Positions 43,487 to 52,100 of a DNA stretch of 64,000 nt are shown here, piece by piece (position 1 is the stretch's first letter; each line of letters starts with the position of its first letter). The DNA is taken from assembly GCA_905178155.1 (NCBI GenBank), contig CAJINV010000001.1:16306142-16370141 (forward strand). The letters run 5' to 3'. The translations under genes and the position numbers were made by a program. The notes beneath the pieces are model-generated. The model was given only the letters and a program-made list of their open reading frames with translations, searched no databases and was not told where the DNA came from. Source of the stretch: Amoebophrya sp. A120 (taxonomy: Eukaryota > Protista > Dinoflagellata).

Positions 43487-44387
43487 GCACTACCTTGTCC
43501 TTGGCATGGATTTCTTAGAAAAACAAACCACGAGAATTGGCAACGGTTGTGTGGAAATATGTGTGCTTCAAGAAGATCGACGCTATGCATTATTTCCGTC
43601 TTATTTCCTACATTACGCTAGTGATGATCATTTTCGTTTTACCGCCACGGTTCTGCCGCCTCCGCTAGCAGTTCTCGCAAGTACACTCTTTTGTTCTCCT
43701 CCGCCAAGCTACACGCAAACTTTCACTACAAACATGTTGATCGCGAGAAGAGTGTCTGTGGACAAGAACGCCAGCAGCTTCATCAAAGAGGCTTTCGCAC
43801 AACTGACAGTTGAGCTGGAAACGTCAAAATAGACTCAAATCGTGAAAGCATCAGAGAAGTCGGGAGAGAGAATGCGAGGCTTTACCCGTGGCCCAGCGCA
43901 ATTTCTTACCAGCAAACTTTCAGATCGGGAACTTCTCATATGATCCTGTACTCGCTGAAGTAGCTGGCTAAATGTAATAGCGGTTGGTTGCGGTGCAGGA
44001 CTAGATTGATGACATTAACCTCGGTAAGCCCCGAGACAAGCGTGGCTTCTGTATGCTAGCTTGGCCGCGCCGGTGACGGAGTGCTTTACAAAAGTCACGA
44101 GCCGCTGCTGCCCCGACCGAGCCGCTCCTCGCTTCCAAGAAGACGTTTGGATTTTTACAGCTGTTCTTCCAGTCCGTGGACCGGCACGCTGCGTAAGACG
44201 GTCTCCTGTCGCTTCTTCACGTCAACACCGCATAATTGAGGCCACGGCAACATCAGCGGGTTTTGTGCGACATCTGTTGGGTGCGAGTTCTAAGTTCTAA
44301 GTTTGATAAAAGATAAGTCCTCGTGTCCGTCCGTCTTGCTTCTACCGTCTTCTGCACGGCGTTTTGGATCCGTCCCGGCCCTGCACC

Positions 44388-47300
44388 ATGGCACCCCAAC
44401 TCGAGGTTCCGTCGTCCGCCTTTTTTCCGGGACAACAACAGATTACACCGATTAACGATAAATGCGACGGTGAAAACACCGAGGACGAGGACATGGACCA
44501 TACGCCCGCGAAGCAACTGTCGGCCGGTATTGCCCCGCAGGTGGGGATGCGAATGGTAGGCACGATTGTGCGGGAGATCTTTCACAAGGTTAAGGACAAG
44601 GATGGCAACGTGATCCGGGTCGGGGACAGCAAGGGGTACGGATTCATTCGTCCGCATAAGCAACTCAGCCTGGAGAACTTCCTCGGGCACAAAACAGGGG
44701 GTCGCTTCACCAACTTTGTCAGTGTGTCACCGGATTTTATTGCGGAACTGTCGGAGTTGTCGAGGGAGTTCAAATCCAAGAATGACCTGTTTGTGCACAA
44801 GCGGTCCGTCGTTGAGGGCGACTGGGGTGTGGGCTGTGTGGCCGAATTCACTGTTGCACCGGGCCGGGAGGAGGGCAAGCTTGAGGCGCGCATGGTGCAA
44901 ATCCTGGCCGTTGATCCCCGCTGCCCGACTCTGGATGCGCTGGCGAAGAAGGTTCAGTGGCTCGAGGGGCAGTTAAAGTTGTCCAACAAAAAATCCAACG
45001 ACGCGGTGGCGACCGCTGAAGCCGCAAGGGTGACCTCGGCGCAGGCAGCGGCCAAAGTGCATCAGGTCGAAACCTCCACCAGCCAGCGCCTGGGCAAGCT
45101 CGAAGCCGGGGTAGAGGAGTCCGCACAGGTGGCGCGCGACACGAAGAGAGACGTTGAGGCGGTGAAAAAGGAGGTTGTTACCCAGCAGTCGACCCTGGCG
45201 GAGATCCTGTTGCATGTCAAGCAGAACTCCGCTGCATCGGCCCAGCCGGCGAAGCGCAATGAGGATGAGGATGAGGGTATCGCTAGCGCTCCTTCGTGCG
45301 AACAGTCTTCATCTTCGTGTTCATCTTCGTCTTCATCATCACAGCTCTGTCTCAACAACTTAAATTCCCACATCTCATCATCACAGGTCATTCCGGCGAT
45401 GACAAGAGACGTAAGATGGCCGGCGCTGGAGCTGCTGAAGCGACAAACCCATAGCAGCAGAGCGGGTGATCAGGTTGCTGCACCACGGCGGCTTTTTGCT
45501 GGTGCTGCAGCCGGAGATGATGAGTTTGATGAAAATCTTGATGTGAACAATTTTGACAACGAGGATTTTGAACAACAGCAACCAGATGACAAAGAATCAT
45601 CTTGTTTGTCCTGTCGACTGTCGGAACTGTCGGTAGCCGTACAGTCAGATTTTGTTGATAGCCCGCAAAACGAAAACCAAACCACGAACGGCAATCCTTA
45701 CATCTGTGAAACGAGTGATTTGAGCCAGCAGCCAGCCTCTGCAATTGTTGAAAGGGCCTCTGCAGCTGGTCCGTCGCACACCAGGCAGTTGGTGTCTCAC
45801 GCGTTCAACGCTTTGTGTTCACTAGGGCGTCACGACTCTGTTATCGCGGTGTCAGATACCTCTCCAAAAACACCTGATCGACGCTGGCCCGCGACATCTA
45901 CCGTCCCCGCAGTGAACGAGGCACAGTGCGACCCGTTTGTGACACCGCCCCCGCGCACAAGGACTATCTGGGACCCAGGCATCAGAACAGCCGAAAAGGA
46001 TACAACAGCTCGCAACTCTCGCCGGATCAGACGGAGCAGGAGGAAGGGCTTCTTCGCAAACATCATCACGGTCAACTTTCAGGGGAAACACCAGTCCAAG
46101 CAGCGCGAGCAAATACTCCAGCACTTTTCCGAAGTCCATAGCTTGGGCGGGCCCCACATCGACGCGATACTTGGGACGGAGTTCTCGTACGATGCGAATG
46201 CTGCTGATGGACCGCCCGACAGCTTCTCCACTACCCTAGACACGGACGGGAGATGGTTGACCCTGTGGATTTGTGGCGCGGCGATAATAGTATACAACAA
46301 GCAGTGGATCAAGCAGATTCTTCGTGGCAACTTCCGGGTACATTCACAGCCACGGATTATAGCACTGCGCCTCCCGTTCTTAGCCCTTTGCAGCGCGTAC
46401 GCCCCAGCTGATGGAAGTAAGGCCGGCCAGGGAGTGTGTTTGGCGTTTGACATCTTCCTTGGCAACCTCGAGATTGTACTTGGCAAAATCCGTAAGCCGC
46501 TACGTACCGGATCGACCCCACTGCTCGTGAAGCTGAATACCGCAGCGAAACCCCCTGGGCTTCCAGACCCTACGTTCGACGCCTCGGCCAACTCGTCGCT
46601 CCGCTGCCCAGTTTTTGTTGGGGGTGACAATCTTGGCACCGTTGGGTCTCCGGACTCCAGGAATAGACGAGGCTATTGTGGGGGACAGACAGCCGGCCAG
46701 TTTGGGCTTGATGATACGAATGGGCGCGGCGTTGAAGTTTTGCGATTTGGCGATGACTACGGGCTTGCAAATGTCAATGTGCTTTACGACCACCGGGAAT
46801 CGAAGAAATTTGTTCAGTGGCGTCCGAGTTTGCTCTGGCATGCGCAGGATCGGGCAACGCATTACTCCAAGCGGATTCTCAGGTGGCGGGAGCTCGATCA
46901 GTTCTACGTAACGAGCTGCGACGTTCCGAGCATCACTGTTTGCGCCACCGTTACGTCGCCGCTGGGTCTTGACCACCGTCACAAGTTTCTCCGCGCATTC
47001 ATCGAGTTTTCTTATCAGCGGAGGAACATCGACCGTAGGGCGAAACAGGACCGGACGGAGGTTGACGCTTCTGCACCGTTGTGGCGTGCCACCCCTTCAG
47101 CAAAACACCAGTTTTCCGCCGCTGTTGTGCAGGCGTTGTGCCCAGAACCGGACTCGGCCGCAGACGTTAGCTCCCCTGTTGCCGACCCGACCCCGCAGAC
47201 TCCGCTTGATATCCCCATATCCCGCATCCCAGAGGCTCTTGTTGCTGCGCGGGGTATTTTAGCGGGGTCCGCACAGCAGGAGCTGAACCGCTACAACCGG

Positions 47301-50300
47301 AGCCACGACTACAAGAAACGGAGACGCTTCGACCTGCGCATCAAGATCCTACGCAAGGAAGTTCGGCGCCTCGGCGCCGCCCTCGACCCAGACGATGACG
47401 CAGCGGGCGCAGTTTATCAGGAAAAGTGTGAGCTTTTAGCCAGTGTCATTGCAGAGCGTGTGGAATTCCGCAAGACCCAGTCCTCCGACTTCAACACGGA
47501 CTACCACACCAGGGCGCAGCGCACGCTGAAGCGGAGGCTTGCAAAGGGTGTTGATTTCGATCCTGAGACTGCGGCGAAGCACTTCCAAGCCGTCAGTGTC
47601 TCGCCCGGGGTTCCTAACGTTGAGCTTGTTCGCAGCGCTGTGCAGCCCCTTGACGACACCAGCAGGGAAACACTTTTAAAGGAGTTCTCCATCGAGGAGT
47701 GCATGTCCGCCGCCAAGCGTCGCCGCAACAGCCTACAAGTAGACGTCGTTGGCGATTCCATTGCGCTGTACAAAGCTTTGAACGCCGGGGCCTGGGCAGT
47801 GATTGTCCGGATCCTGAACCACCACCGGCTGACCAACTTTGTGGGGCTCCTTGGCGAAAACCCGCAGGACCAGCAAGTTCTTGCCGCCACTGTCCGGCTG
47901 CTCTACAAGGGAAAAGGCGCCGAGACTAGTCTTGATAATTTTCGTGGCATCGTGAATACCTCGATTATTGTTAAAGTGCTGACGGCTGTTTTAACAGATC
48001 GGCTTGATGCCTGCCTTCGTTCCTGTGGTTTTCTTTCTGGGCGCCAGCATGGGTTTCGCAGGCACTACCAAGTGGACGAAGCGGTTTTTTTGGCGCGTCG
48101 GGCGTGTGAGGATGCCCTGCGTGTTTTCGGGAAGGGGAGCAGTGTCGGCAATTTGTCGCTGCTGCTCCTTCTTGACATCAGGAAAGCCTACCCCAGTTTC
48201 CCGTGGAAGATCTGGAAGGGAATCATCCGCGGGCTCGGTGTTGAGGACTCTTTTTTCGACTCCCTCTTCAGCATCGTCCACCGCCGAACTAGCTACCAGG
48301 TTCTCTGTGGTGACAAACCAAGCGACCCGTTTTTTTTAGACAGCGGCTTCGGAGAGGGACAGATAAGCTCTCCCAGTTCGTACTCCCTCGCCTACGAGTG
48401 TGTTCTACGTGTTGTGCGACAAGTGTTGACCGAGAGGCTTTCCAGATCTTCGTCGCTGCTTCTTTGGTCCCCGCGTGCGCCGTTTGCTTTCGTTCCAGGA
48501 GTGAAGCCGGGTACGGGGTTGCGATCGGTATTTGACCTCCTACACCCGGGGTCGGCCTCCCTTGTCGTCGACAAGATGACCGAGTGGGAATTCGCCGACG
48601 ATACGCTGATCCCGGCCCTCCTTCTACATTGTCTGATAAATTTTTTCGGTTGGGAAGCAACTGCGGATGAGGCTGCTGTAGCGGCGAACCGGGGGAAGTT
48701 TGATTTTGTCCTTGCGTCAAACCCAGAAGTCTCTGCTTTCGTCCGGTATCTCGGGGCGTTTCTGGATCGCCGCGAGGATTCCTCGCGCAGAATTGGAAAG
48801 ATGCTTGCGGCACTTGGCGAAGTTGACTGTGTCCCTGCCGCGGGGGACACGGTCACTGATGTGCGGATAAACATCATGTCGCGGGTGCGCAGCAGGGGGC
48901 TCTTTGCGATTGGGACGAGGGAGATTACGCAACAGGAAATAAAATCGCATCAGGTCATCGAGAATCAGGCTCTTCTGCGCCTTGCCGGCCAACCGCGTTG
49001 GTCGTTGCGCCGCTTCCACCTGCCGCTGGCCCGCCTTCGTCGGTGGTACCACATGGACCCAGCGTGCGCGATGATCCGCTACTCACAGTGTTCGCACGTC
49101 GGCCACATAGTGCGGTCCGATCCTGGTCGACTCTCTCGGAAAGCGTTTTTTGGAATGTTGACCTTCGGCCTGCCATGTCTTGAAGACCACTACTTGCACA
49201 GGCGGACCGGGCAGATTTCTCTCTGGGACAACGTGCGTGATTCCTTGAAGCTTGTATGCGGTGAGCGGTCTGACACGCAATACCTGACCCTGATGCAGTC
49301 CCGGCCGCATTTCAACGCCTTGCTTTATGAGCTTCGCATTTTTTTGACGATTGAAGACTACCTCACTGATGACGGCGTCACTGATCAGCAGCTTGCCGAC
49401 GCTCGGAAGTGGTGGGCTGAGCACTTTGCGAAGCGCCAGAACTCGCTGCCGATTGATGTCAATTGCCGCTCTGGATTTTCGTGGTTTAGCCAAGACGGCC
49501 GATCATTCACCGATGAAGTGCTGGCCAAGATTCATGTCGAGACTACTGTTCCCGGCTCTACCAACTTCTCGCGGTGCAGAAGATGCAGTGTTGATGCCTG
49601 CGACAAGTGGGACACACGTTTTACCCCGAAGTTCCTGAACGACTACGCCTGCACGCCCTACATTCCTTCCCCCCGACCTGAGACACGGTGGAAGACTGCC
49701 GAGTTCCGCGATATCAGGCAAGTTGTTGGGCATGACAGTGGTGTCTCCATTCATTGCGAGAACCCGGCGCCCGCGGTTGGGGATGCCAGTGGTGCTGACC
49801 TGTCCTTCTTCCGCCGCGATGACATCGTGAACACCGTCTACGAGAAAGTGCGCGCGGTGCACGCTGAAAAGCCTCCTGACCCCCCGAAGAAGTTGCCGCC
49901 GCTCACGAAGTTAGTGCAGTCCATCGAAGTTGAGCAGTTCCGTGACGTATTGTTCCCCCCCACAGACCAGTCTGGCGACGCATCTTCCTCCAACCTCCGC
50001 TTTGCCTCAAGCACCCCTCCGGACGACCATCTGCAGCTGACGAGGTACCTTGAGGAGCAGCATGCTGCGATTTGCCGTGAGATTGAGGAGTATCCGTTTT
50101 TCATCACTCATCGCTACGACCATGGGAGTAAAGCGATCGCATCGGTTCGCTGCGTTTGCCAGGAGTGCCGCGACTTTGTCCTGCGCAAGCGAGCGAAGGG
50201 GCCACGGGGTAGAGCTGCGTCCGAGTCCTCTTCCGTTTCGATTTCGGAGTCTGCAGATGGCGATGGTGTTGACGCAGGTAACGAGTCTGATGATGAATTT

Positions 50301-50999
50301 GTGTTGGAGATAGGGCGTGGCGCTGGGGATGCTCTTGCTCTGTCCCCCGACCATGAGGTTCCGGAAGACGATGACGAAGACCCGACGACCCTCAAGATGC
50401 TTGTCCCCGTTGATCAGCAGCGGTTGTTCGCCAATTTGAAGACTGCGTTCCGACACATGCGATACAAGAAGCAGAAGCAGGCAGAGGCGGACTTCAGTGC
50501 ATTAATTCCGGCCCCCCCCAAGAAACCCAAGGAAACTACGACCAGTGCGAAACCTGCGCGGGCCCTCGACGTTGACGCCCCTCCGCAGCGGACCAAGAAG
50601 CTGATGCCGTCGCAAGCCCTTGACTCGGAGCTGCATCCTGAGCAGCGCGTCGTCGATGTTTCTGCCGGCAGCGCCCACACTGTCGACGAGGACCCGCCCA
50701 TGCAGCTCCCCAAGGGCATCACGTGGTGCACGTCCATGCCTGGAGCTGCGTCGCGTGCTTTTGGCGGGGTGCTTCTCGTTAGGGTGACGAACGCGAAGCT
50801 GCCCGATGGGTCTACGCACCACGTATCCCGACACATCGATCCAGCCGCGTACGGGAACAGTGCGTCGCTCGCGATTGAAGCGGCAATTGCACTACGAACC
50901 CAGATCACACTTGACCCTGCCCCCTTCATTGCGAAAACGAAGCGGATGCGAAAGCCGAAAAAGAAGAAAAGTGGTGGTGGTGTGGACGTTCGTAGGTAG
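44388..50999 (+). CDS. retrotransposon polyprotein: cold-shock domain - coiled coil - AP endonuclease - reverse transcriptase - split Zn finger - AP2-like domain
   Basis: CSD KGYGFI/DLFVH (~44547-44905). APE NIITVNFQG, SAYAP, VGGDN, LDQF, LDH (~46050-47000). RT LLYKGKG..NFRGI, QHGFR, LLDIRKAY, FADD (48591), YLG (48747). CxCxxC...F.....RH. C-terminal LPKGITW...YG...A...AIALR. Confidence 0.92.
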   Translation: MAPQLEVPSSAFFPGQQQITPINDKCDGENTEDEDMDHTPAKQLSAGIAPQVGMRMVGTIVREIFHKVKDKDGNVIRVGDSKGYGFIRPHKQLSLENFLGHKTGGRFTNFVSVSPDFIAELSELSREFKSKNDLFVHKRSVVEGDWGVGCVAEFTVAPGREEGKLEARMVQILAVDPRCPTLDALAKKVQWLEGQLKLSNKKSNDAVATAEAARVTSAQAAAKVHQVETSTSQRLGKLEAGVEESAQVARDTKRDVEAVKKEVVTQQSTLAEILLHVKQNSAASAQPAKRNEDEDEGIASAPSCEQSSSSCSSSSSSSQLCLNNLNSHISSSQVIPAMTRDVRWPALELLKRQTHSSRAGDQVAAPRRLFAGAAAGDDEFDENLDVNNFDNEDFEQQQPDDKESSCLSCRLSELSVAVQSDFVDSPQNENQTTNGNPYICETSDLSQQPASAIVERASAAGPSHTRQLVSHAFNALCSLGRHDSVIAVSDTSPKTPDRRWPATSTVPAVNEAQCDPFVTPPPRTRTIWDPGIRTAEKDTTARNSRRIRRSRRKGFFANIITVNFQGKHQSKQREQILQHFSEVHSLGGPHIDAILGTEFSYDANAADGPPDSFSTTLDTDGRWLTLWICGAAIIVYNKQWIKQILRGNFRVHSQPRIIALRLPFLALCSAYAPADGSKAGQGVCLAFDIFLGNLEIVLGKIRKPLRTGSTPLLVKLNTAAKPPGLPDPTFDASANSSLRCPVFVGGDNLGTVGSPDSRNRRGYCGGQTAGQFGLDDTNGRGVEVLRFGDDYGLANVNVLYDHRESKKFVQWRPSLLWHAQDRATHYSKRILRWRELDQFYVTSCDVPSITVCATVTSPLGLDHRHKFLRAFIEFSYQRRNIDRRAKQDRTEVDASAPLWRATPSAKHQFSAAVVQALCPEPDSAADVSSPVADPTPQTPLDIPISRIPEALVAARGILAGSAQQELNRYNRSHDYKKRRRFDLRIKILRKEVRRLGAALDPDDDAAGAVYQEKCELLASVIAERVEFRKTQSSDFNTDYHTRAQRTLKRRLAKGVDFDPETAAKHFQAVSVSPGVPNVELVRSAVQPLDDTSRETLLKEFSIEECMSAAKRRRNSLQVDVVGDSIALYKALNAGAWAVIVRILNHHRLTNFVGLLGENPQDQQVLAATVRLLYKGKGAETSLDNFRGIVNTSIIVKVLTAVLTDRLDACLRSCGFLSGRQHGFRRHYQVDEAVFLARRACEDALRVFGKGSSVGNLSLLLLLDIRKAYPSFPWKIWKGIIRGLGVEDSFFDSLFSIVHRRTSYQVLCGDKPSDPFFLDSGFGEGQISSPSSYSLAYECVLRVVRQVLTERLSRSSSLLLWSPRAPFAFVPGVKPGTGLRSVFDLLHPGSASLVVDKMTEWEFADDTLIPALLLHCLINFFGWEATADEAAVAANRGKFDFVLASNPEVSAFVRYLGAFLDRREDSSRRIGKMLAALGEVDCVPAAGDTVTDVRINIMSRVRSRGLFAIGTREITQQEIKSHQVIENQALLRLAGQPRWSLRRFHLPLARLRRWYHMDPACAMIRYSQCSHVGHIVRSDPGRLSRKAFFGMLTFGLPCLEDHYLHRRTGQISLWDNVRDSLKLVCGERSDTQYLTLMQSRPHFNALLYELRIFLTIEDYLTDDGVTDQQLADARKWWAEHFAKRQNSLPIDVNCRSGFSWFSQDGRSFTDEVLAKIHVETTVPGSTNFSRCRRCSVDACDKWDTRFTPKFLNDYACTPYIPSPRPETRWKTAEFRDIRQVVGHDSGVSIHCENPAPAVGDASGADLSFFRRDDIVNTVYEKVRAVHAEKPPDPPKKLPPLTKLVQSIEVEQFRDVLFPPTDQSGDASSSNLRFASSTPPDDHLQLTRYLEEQHAAICREIEEYPFFITHRYDHGSKAIASVRCVCQECRDFVLRKRAKGPRGRAASESSSVSISESADGDGVDAGNESDDEFVLEIGRGAGDALALSPDHEVPEDDDEDPTTLKMLVPVDQQRLFANLKTAFRHMRYKKQKQAEADFSALIPAPPKKPKETTTSAKPARALDVDAPPQRTKKLMPSQALDSELHPEQRVVDVSAGSAHTVDEDPPMQLPKGITWCTSMPGAASRAFGGVLLVRVTNAKLPDGSTHHVSRHIDPAAYGNSASLAIEAAIALRTQITLDPAPFIAKTKRMRKPKKKKSGGGVDVRR

Positions 51000-52100
51000 T
51001 GTGTACGTTAGTAGCTAGCGTTGTAGCCTGGGGGAGTGCGTTTTTTAGTTAGAAGTCCGCTGATGTTTCTGCCTGTGTGCAGTTGCACTTGAAAAAACTA
51101 TTTGCAGCTACAAAAATAATAAAAAACACAAAAAAAAAACCGTAACTTTCTAGTAGTGCAGTCTCTCTGCCTCTCTACAGCAAGGTAAAAGTCAAACTAT
51201 CTGTGTTTGGCTTTCTTTTTTCTTTTACCTTTCTTTTTCTCAGTTGAGAGCTTTGTGAGTCCGCAACACGATGGTGTGCTGATGAGTGACGAGTGACGTC
51301 GTGTTTTGTCTCTCTTGGTAACACCGTTGTTGATGATCTTATGATGCTATTTATTACACGAATGCTTGGTTTAAAGTTTTACCTGATTTCCATTCTAAAC
51401 TTGGTCGCCGGGAAGGGACCGAGGTACGTGTTAAAGGCTTCGCGCTTTGTAGTTAAAGTCTTACAAGCTCTGAGGATCCATCGTGCTCGCCTTGTCCCGA
51501 TGCTATGGTGGAAAAACAGACTCACTAACGAGAGCGAAAATCCAAAAAAGCTGTTGTTTTCCATGATCTCACACGTATCGCCTTGTCCCCGTCTAAAACT
51601 GCAGTTTTGATAGTTCAGGTAGTAGAAAGTGCGTGAGTTTTTTTTCTGCGAAAAGACCAATCCTACGTAGACGGGAACGTGACGACTTCGACAAATCACG
51701 ACTTGTAGCCGGTTTGAGGGTTTTCACATGACGAAGACCATTATTCTGACCTATTGCCGTGTAGTTTTTTTTTTGATTGAAATCCAAAATCTGAAAGCTT
51801 AGTTTTGTTTTAGCTCCCCCAGGCCCGCTCCTCGGAGCATAGTTTTTTCAAACCTTTCCAATGTAGCTCCTCGGAGCATAGTCTTCTCGCCCATTCCAGC
51901 TCAGCTCTTCGGAGCCTATTCTTTTAGTCCTCTCTAGTCTGCAAAAGGGTTTAGTTAATTCTGTTTCAGCTCCAAACTTCTGACAAACGCAAATCTGTTT
52001 TACGGCCGACGTGGTGGTTAGGATTGCCTGACTGCTGCGTTGAGCCCAGCTTGTGTGACGGCGTCACGTGGGCTGACACCTCTGATCTGATCTGATCATC
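51000..52100 (+). ncRNA. structured 3' UTR / RNA domain of the retrotransposon
   Basis: Several long-range inverted complements (11-13 bp, perfect) and local hairpins whose G-U pairs only form on the + strand. Confidence 0.6.
51827..51920 (+). repeat. three tandem GCTC(C/T)TCGGAGC tetraloop-hairpin repeats, period 38-39 nt
   Basis: GCTCCTCGGAGCATAGT at 51827 and 51866; GCTCTTCGGAGCCTATT at 51904. Confidence 0.85.

Follow-up and report, generated by a model that had tools for sequence, protein, structure and literature searches.

A likely AP2-type domain at the C-terminus of the APE-RT protein of a protist non-LTR retrotransposon

The window, by which we mean the whole stretch of 64,000 nucleotides that was analysed, contains a 2229-codon stop-to-stop open reading frame on the + strand (44310–50999), which carries no stop codon from 44310 to 50996 and whose first ATG at 44388 gives a protein of 2203 amino acids (44388–50999, +). 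The preliminary description of this DNA had placed an AP2-like DNA-binding domain at the C-terminus of a reverse transcriptase (RT), and the residues it quoted from 50706–50906 (+) are indeed encoded there, in frame with the RT-bearing part of the ORF. The deduced protein starts with a cold-shock-like and coiled-coil front, followed by a putative APE endonuclease, the RT, a Cys/His region, the 65-aa domain behind a low-complexity acidic linker and finally a basic tail. Judged from its sequence, the element is an intact single-ORF LINE of the APE type, i.e. a non-LTR retrotransposon, with the following features:

44310–51139, + strand: full-length non-LTR retrotransposon of about 6.8 kb, delimited by contig ends of the DNA run X1; 5' end approximate
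44388–50999, + strand: single intact ORF of 2203 aa, translated without internal stop
44541–44912, + strand: cold-shock-like (RNP-motif) region with an insert; a Pfam CSD match of just 19 residues (E 0.033), which is under the cut-off
44934–45197, + strand: predicted coiled coil; weak matches to Pfam Tropomyosin (E 0.076) and KxDL (E 0.12)
46050–47030, + strand: putative APE-type endonuclease, bounds approximate; BLASTP match (E 6e-5, 19% identity) to P0002 in its endonuclease region
47871–49157, + strand: reverse transcriptase including the thumb, judged RTE-like by eye; matches to RVT_1, P0002 and L1 ORF2p
49302–50300, + strand: C-terminal region with two Cys/His clusters, seen in the translation
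50706–50906, + strand: AP2-like domain, 65 aa; secondary structure, Atlas, VIA-align and profile fit against controls
about 50718–50735, 50772–50798 and 50814–50837, + strand: strands of the AP2-like domain as predicted by the AlphaFold models
about 50862–50906, + strand: its main helix, from the same models
about 50934–50969, + strand: basic Lys/Arg-rich tail, from the sequence
51000–51139, + strand: 3' UTR with an A-rich tract at its end, from the sequence and a shared contig (50798–51120)

The cold-shock-like region, for which a PDB search returned only an RRM protein (E 0.12), is likely to be an RNA binder of the ORF1 type, its Pfam match being weak. Together with the likely coiled coil behind it, this region would form an ORF1-like unit fused in frame; among the few papers listed by a literature search, none concerned a LINE ORF starting with a cold-shock-like RNA-binding region. 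The endonuclease region gave no Pfam match of its own and was recognised via the LINE protein P0002, which carries Exo_endo_phos_2 (Pfam). On visual inspection of their alignment, the positions of the catalytic Asp and His coincided, and the Asn after the Asp was shifted by one residue. Because of this apparent shift, activity is not certain, and we regard the endonuclease as putative, its match being weak but correctly placed upstream of the RT. The RT itself matched Pfam RVT_1 at E 0.0024, under the curated cut-off, and P0002 with 25% identity over 467 columns (E 5e-26), both motif-C aspartates aligning with those of P0002, and its best PDB sequence matches were to human L1 ORF2p (E 0.009–0.27). 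These matches bear out the earlier statement that the C-terminal domain sits on a retrotransposon RT, which from its motifs we take to be RTE-like. The two Cys/His clusters behind it are possible zinc sites, and for the region around them (49302–50300) neither Pfam nor PHROG yielded anything below E 0.06. The basic tail described previously is also present; the last 103 amino acids of the ORF carry a net charge of +10, and the tail would be a candidate nuclear localisation signal.

The ends of the element were derived from contigs of X1. At the 5' end, a contig of the unique flank stops at 44339 and two variants continue from 44326, and at the 3' end a shared contig stops at 51120 within the A-rich tract, with loose ends behind 51138–51140. 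Long terminal repeats were not seen, and a convincing target-site duplication was not found, the best candidate being 7 nt with one mismatch next to an uncertain 5' end. Of the features expected of an APE-type non-LTR element, the analysis recovered an RT with its catalytic aspartates, a weakly matching APE domain upstream of it, an A-rich 3' end without LTRs and, from depth steps and loose ends in one DNA run, likely 5'-truncated copies. We rejected a frame error or an assembly fusion as the origin of the composite ORF, since the core contig overlaps the next one at 50402–50431 without a stop or gap and GC3 is uniform (0.62–0.67 in all six ORF segments measured). The two contigs concerned (45770–50431 and 50402–50827) overlap with one differing letter.

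All inferences on copies come from X1, a single DNA run that may be the source of the window itself, and depths of contigs give a rough measure but no strict copy number. The core (45770–50431) forms one contig with a depth of 21.6, compared to 25–27 in the flanks, and the depth then steps up to 35 over 50402–50827 and to 67 over 50798–51120. Position 50798 is preceded by foreign sequence, and three loose ends that differ from each other follow behind 51138–51140. This pattern likely reflects one full copy and about two nearly identical, 5'-truncated and 3'-anchored sister copies. Because such truncation with a fixed 3' end is the usual mark of target-primed retrotransposition, the element has likely moved recently by this mechanism. 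The nature of the element as a complete APE-RT LINE, its cold-shock-like front and its likely truncated sister copies go beyond the preliminary description. A domesticated host transcription factor was rejected as an explanation of the ORF, as the intact APE-RT part and the truncated copies argue for a mobile element.

Further matches in X1 concern other parts of the element. The front (44310–45995) has a second copy of about 87–99% similarity, which ends just before the endonuclease and suggests either a module common to a sister family or a 3'-deleted copy. Short matches to more diverged endonuclease and RT sequences (46707–46943, 47789–47827 and 48366–48602) suggest that the genome harbours sister LINE families as well. 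Directly behind the A-tract lies a separate high-copy repeat (51140–52063; summed X1 depth 300–400), which includes three 23-nt direct repeats at 51827–51926. Within the window, 18 of the 23 long ORFs are on one strand, which fits a compact genome of the dinoflagellate type and proves nothing; unidirectional gene clusters are described for such genomes in the available part of PMC7789003.

Transcription was assessed from X3 and X6, both of which are RNA by guess. They provided short low-depth contigs over the domain and the 3' UTR, and X3 also showed five GT-AG skips in neighbouring genes; this part of the element is therefore likely transcribed at a low level. The raw RNA runs X8 and X9 yielded one read each and were uninformative in this respect. 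A 2749-nt contig of X6 joins position 43671 to 51054 of the window, skipping 7.4 kb including the whole ORF, and links the 3' UTR of an upstream hydrolase-like gene directly to that of the element. Taken literally, this junction has non-canonical ends; if one mismatch is allowed there, they would be GT-AG. The host transcript may splice the element out.

The domain at 50706–50906 gave no match to the Pfam AP2 family PF00847 at E values up to 10, either with three different cuts or with the whole ORF, and no PHROG or PDB sequence matches. The curated cut-off of PF00847 is 33.3 bits, and the HMMER filters drop weak matches. The tails of the T5 proteins hegE and hegF, which are true phage AP2 domains, likewise miss PF00847 at E values up to 0.01; they score 64 and 40 bits on an AP2 profile we built, hegE itself being a profile member. 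Compared by eye with the AP2 consensus, the domain retains the Gly of strand 1, the alanines of the helix and the terminal Arg, and aliphatic residues replace the strand-2 Trp and the strand-3 aromatic residue (Phe). Because the curated cut-off was not reached and these two aromatic residues are missing by eye, we do not file the domain under PF00847.

For more sensitive comparisons we used two sets of AP2 sequences. Set A1 consists of 34 HNH-type AP2 tails (from 20 of 48 viral loci and from 14 bacterial loci), and set A2 of 75 distinct phage AP2 domains, obtained from the 80 of 102 pattern matches that were listed. Both performed as AP2 profiles, A1 finding plant AP2/ERF structures and A2 those of AP2s from Plasmodium and Toxoplasma (E up to 3e-9), and all 75 members of A2 matched PF00847 at E values up to 0.1. 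In local alignments the domain scored 1.0, 2.0 and 3.5 bits, values that were reached by 23, 6 and 2 of 1000 shuffled sequences, respectively; the score of 2.0 bits (6/1000) belongs to A2, the phage subtype that resembles ApiAP2 factors. Hhalign probabilities against AP2 alignments were 1.8% and 1.3% (the latter for A2), and the short pieces aligned by hhalign and in the local searches fall in the expected register.

The domain was also fitted end to end to A2 (74 rows, L168 omitted), a subtype picked for its resemblance, so that this test was not blind. The domain scored −0.8 bits (z 4.5), a value reached by none of 300 shuffled sequences and exceeded by just one other of 1033 real sequence segments; hegE, a true AP2 domain of another subtype, scored −0.4 bits on the same profile and is thus level with it. 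With a combined profile, the end-to-end fit gave a z of 3.6, with two of 300 shuffles and five other segments of the 1033 as high. As further controls we took viral stretches that share the loop-and-helix motif of the domain (80 loci listed, of which 12 were dropped for stops or short flanks, leaving 58 distinct sequences, mostly of one protein family). None of these 58 decoys reached the score of the domain (best −9.0, mean −18.2), and none looked like AP2, which was also the case for all four distinct viral matches to the short helix motif alone. The short helix motif by itself is therefore not diagnostic of AP2. The far lower scores of the motif-matched decoys indicate that strands and motif both contribute to the signal, although most of these decoys are of one family. 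Taken as a whole, the domain fits the AP2 profile better than shuffled sequences and natural decoys do, at a low absolute score.

Two single-sequence AlphaFold models both show the order strand-strand-strand-short helix-long helix, with pLDDT values of 54 and 52, i.e. at low confidence. The three strands and the helix that had been proposed from the sequence are therefore recovered in both predictions, and among matches that carry a name AP2 repeatedly came out best, but Pfam membership in the AP2 family was not reached and the models remain poor. VIA-align placed the AP2 domain of Plasmodium SIP2 (6sy0_A) first among 48,161 chains for model 1 (Z 4.1, rmsd 3.7, 58 residues aligned) and Toxoplasma AP2IV-1 eighth, but 6sy0_A fell to rank 22 for model 2 (Z 3.0, rmsd 2.6, 45 residues aligned), with a Toxoplasma AP2 at rank 11, and the Z values of 3–4 are tied with those of unrelated folds (Roadblock, longin, LysR). 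A mitoribosomal AP2 was also among the structural matches. Foldseek found nothing at E values up to 0.001 in PDB (model 1) or BFVD, the models being too poor for this search to weigh the fold. In the ESM Atlas, the first match scored 0.92 with 178 of 256 features shared, and 15% of the cluster members carry PF00847; the recognition value of the best match was 1901, under the tool's line of 2300. With a tighter cut, the best named cluster was again AP2 (PF00847 in 10%, score 0.76), which we treat as a lead only.

Because the Atlas, VIA-align and the profile fit converge on one small family, and because size and terminal position are right, we consider it likely, though not proven, that the domain has an AP2-type fold. 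Its resemblance could instead be due to convergence or chance in an unrelated small α/β module or in drifted C-terminal sequence, a reading that we regard as unlikely but of real weight. Three strands and a helix are a common arrangement, as the tied Roadblock, longin and LysR folds illustrate, the helix motif by itself is also found outside AP2 proteins, hhalign gave just 1–2%, and neither Pfam and PHROG nor a search of 1.84 billion representative sequences returned a match or a true homolog. What speaks against this reading is that three partly independent methods name AP2 first, that size, terminal position and basic tail match the architecture of HNH-AP2 proteins, and that the true AP2 tails of T5 hegE and hegF are missed by Pfam as well.

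Searches for relatives of the domain and of the RT were negative apart from P0002, which was the only match of the RT region among 7991 scored proteins of 1211–3854 aa. The part from the RT to the C-terminus found none among 7995 scored proteins under 1211 aa, and the domain had no relative among 304 candidates of 148–2000 aa. Phmmer over the 1.84 billion representatives found no true homolog of the domain, three matches being rejected as repeat proteins that sum 5–7 weak stretches. No match was obtained by tblastn against phages, no viral contigs with the domain or metagenome contigs with the RT were found, and the 38 matches at E values up to 0.1 in 401 bacterial genomes are at chance level. 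Two viral sequences (L199:181–999 and L200:295–969) encode GIY-YIG-like endonucleases, as judged by eye, with two tandem AP2-like repeats, and the gene on L199 adjoins an apparent large-virus capsid gene. These repeats start similarly to the domain and were rejected as its kin at an hhalign probability of 0.1%.

As the best explanation we tentatively favour, at slightly below an even balance, that the domain is a diverged AP2-fold module, likely captured, which would tether the protein to its target DNA without much sequence preference. In this scheme, the front with its cold-shock-like region and coiled coil would package the RNA as ORF1 does, and the basic tail would bring the particle into the nucleus, where the APE domain would nick the target DNA and the RT would then start copying at the A-tract of the 3' end. 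Attached by a flexible linker, the AP2-like module may keep the protein on the DNA near the nick, occupying the place where other LINEs have a C-terminal zinc finger or chromodomain. The transfer probably went from a host or viral AP2 gene to the element and not in reverse. We assume a low sequence preference because the 3' flanks differ from one another and because the domain lacks the Trp of strand 2 and the Phe of strand 3 found in the AP2 consensus.

The C-terminal domains of LINEs make contacts with RNA, and the structural matches of the present domain include a mitoribosomal AP2. An AP2-fold domain could bind the element's own RNA, e.g. its 3' end, for cis preference or template positioning, which we consider rather unlikely. 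AP2 domains of endonucleases and integrases bind DNA, and a candidate for RNA binding is already present in the front of the ORF. The precedent for RNA binding is provided by myzozoan mtAP2 proteins, which bind rRNA fragments, often at 3' ends, via AP2 domains (PMC11652630, available part), but AP2 domains on mobile elements go with endonucleases and integrases according to the available part of PMC4117751.

A sequence-specific AP2 domain might also steer insertions to a defined motif, e.g. in intergenic or regulatory sites of a compact genome, as the preliminary description had proposed. AP2 domains are typically sequence-specific (PMC4117751, available part), the family has few copies, and the present one is harmlessly placed between two genes of the same strand, adjoining the high-copy repeat. 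The flanks do not bear targeting out: the three other loose ends after the A-tract, some of which may be chance A-rich matches, differ from each other and from the flank in the window, no common motif is evident behind the A-rich end, and no target-site duplication was found. As consensus AP2 residues are lost in addition, we consider targeting quite improbable. The most far-reaching possibility, that a protist LINE family captured AP2 as a sequence-reading guide for target-primed insertion, and would thus be the first retrotransposon carrier of AP2 and an RNA-level route for copying AP2 modules around myzozoan genomes, appears to us a long shot.

AP2 domains are also known as plant and apicomplexan regulators. 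Compared to the ApiAP2 proteins (PfSIP2, 6sy0; Toxoplasma AP2IV-1, 9g6k_UG), the domain shows the same predicted topology and has them as best or near-best structural matches of model 1. It cannot be counted among the ApiAP2 transcription factors because it belongs to the APE-RT protein of a mobile element, whereas ApiAP2s are host proteins that often contain AP2 as their sole globular domain (PMC4117751, available part). An expected bearing on the origin of ApiAP2s found no support: the phage A2 profile matches ApiAP2s at up to E 3e-9, and the LINE domain reaches only about 2 bits on it. Since phage HNH-AP2s are far closer to ApiAP2, the domain, a distant outlier, is a poor witness for these origins and more likely represents a late capture; even a confirmed fold would say little on the source of ApiAP2s. 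The phage subtype A2 itself (loci L097–L175) matches solved ApiAP2s at E 3e-9 to 6e-6 with no plant AP2 listed, unlike A1, which prefers plant AP2/ERF, and makes a better starting point for tracing the origins of ApiAP2s than the LINE domain does.

HNH-AP2 homing endonucleases resemble the element in that an enzyme of a mobile element carries an AP2-type module at its C-terminus, and the A2 phage subtype shares with the domain a longer loop between strands 1 and 2 and the loop-to-helix pattern. The domain differs from them by its carrier, a retrotransposon, by a two-residue insert before the helix, by the absent strand-2 Trp and strand-3 Phe, and by a local-search score near background. The available part of PMC4117751 describes AP2 domains on homing endonucleases and integrases, and that of PMC12220804 an AP2 domain on a polinton-like virus of Symbiodinium; homing endonucleases of Tetrahymena are named in the title of a reference cited in PMC4117751. 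With these published cases, mobile carriers of AP2 were already on record for alveolates. We found no report of AP2 on a retrotransposon in the open-access literature, as judged from titles and abstract openings.

The APE-type single-ORF LINEs represented by P0002 and L1 ORF2p are like the element in the order of APE and RT, the motif-C aspartates, the region following the thumb, the A-rich 3' end and the likely 5'-truncated copies. P0002 is an APE-RT-RNase H-zinc-finger protein, whereas the element, with an RT only 25% identical, has no detected RNase H and differs by its fused cold-shock-like/coiled-coil front and by an AP2-like end instead of zinc fingers. If the fold is confirmed, this end would represent a small, separable domain for testing how APE-type LINEs hold or choose their target DNA, and a proven sequence preference would interest work on RT-based gene insertion. 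Other LINEs have likewise captured non-essential modules into their RT polyproteins, namely chromodomains, SF1 helicases and methylases (PMC6338049, a short review of accessory domains, in whose available part AP2 has 0 occurrences), and a confirmed AP2-type fold would add a new accessory module to those of LINE proteins.
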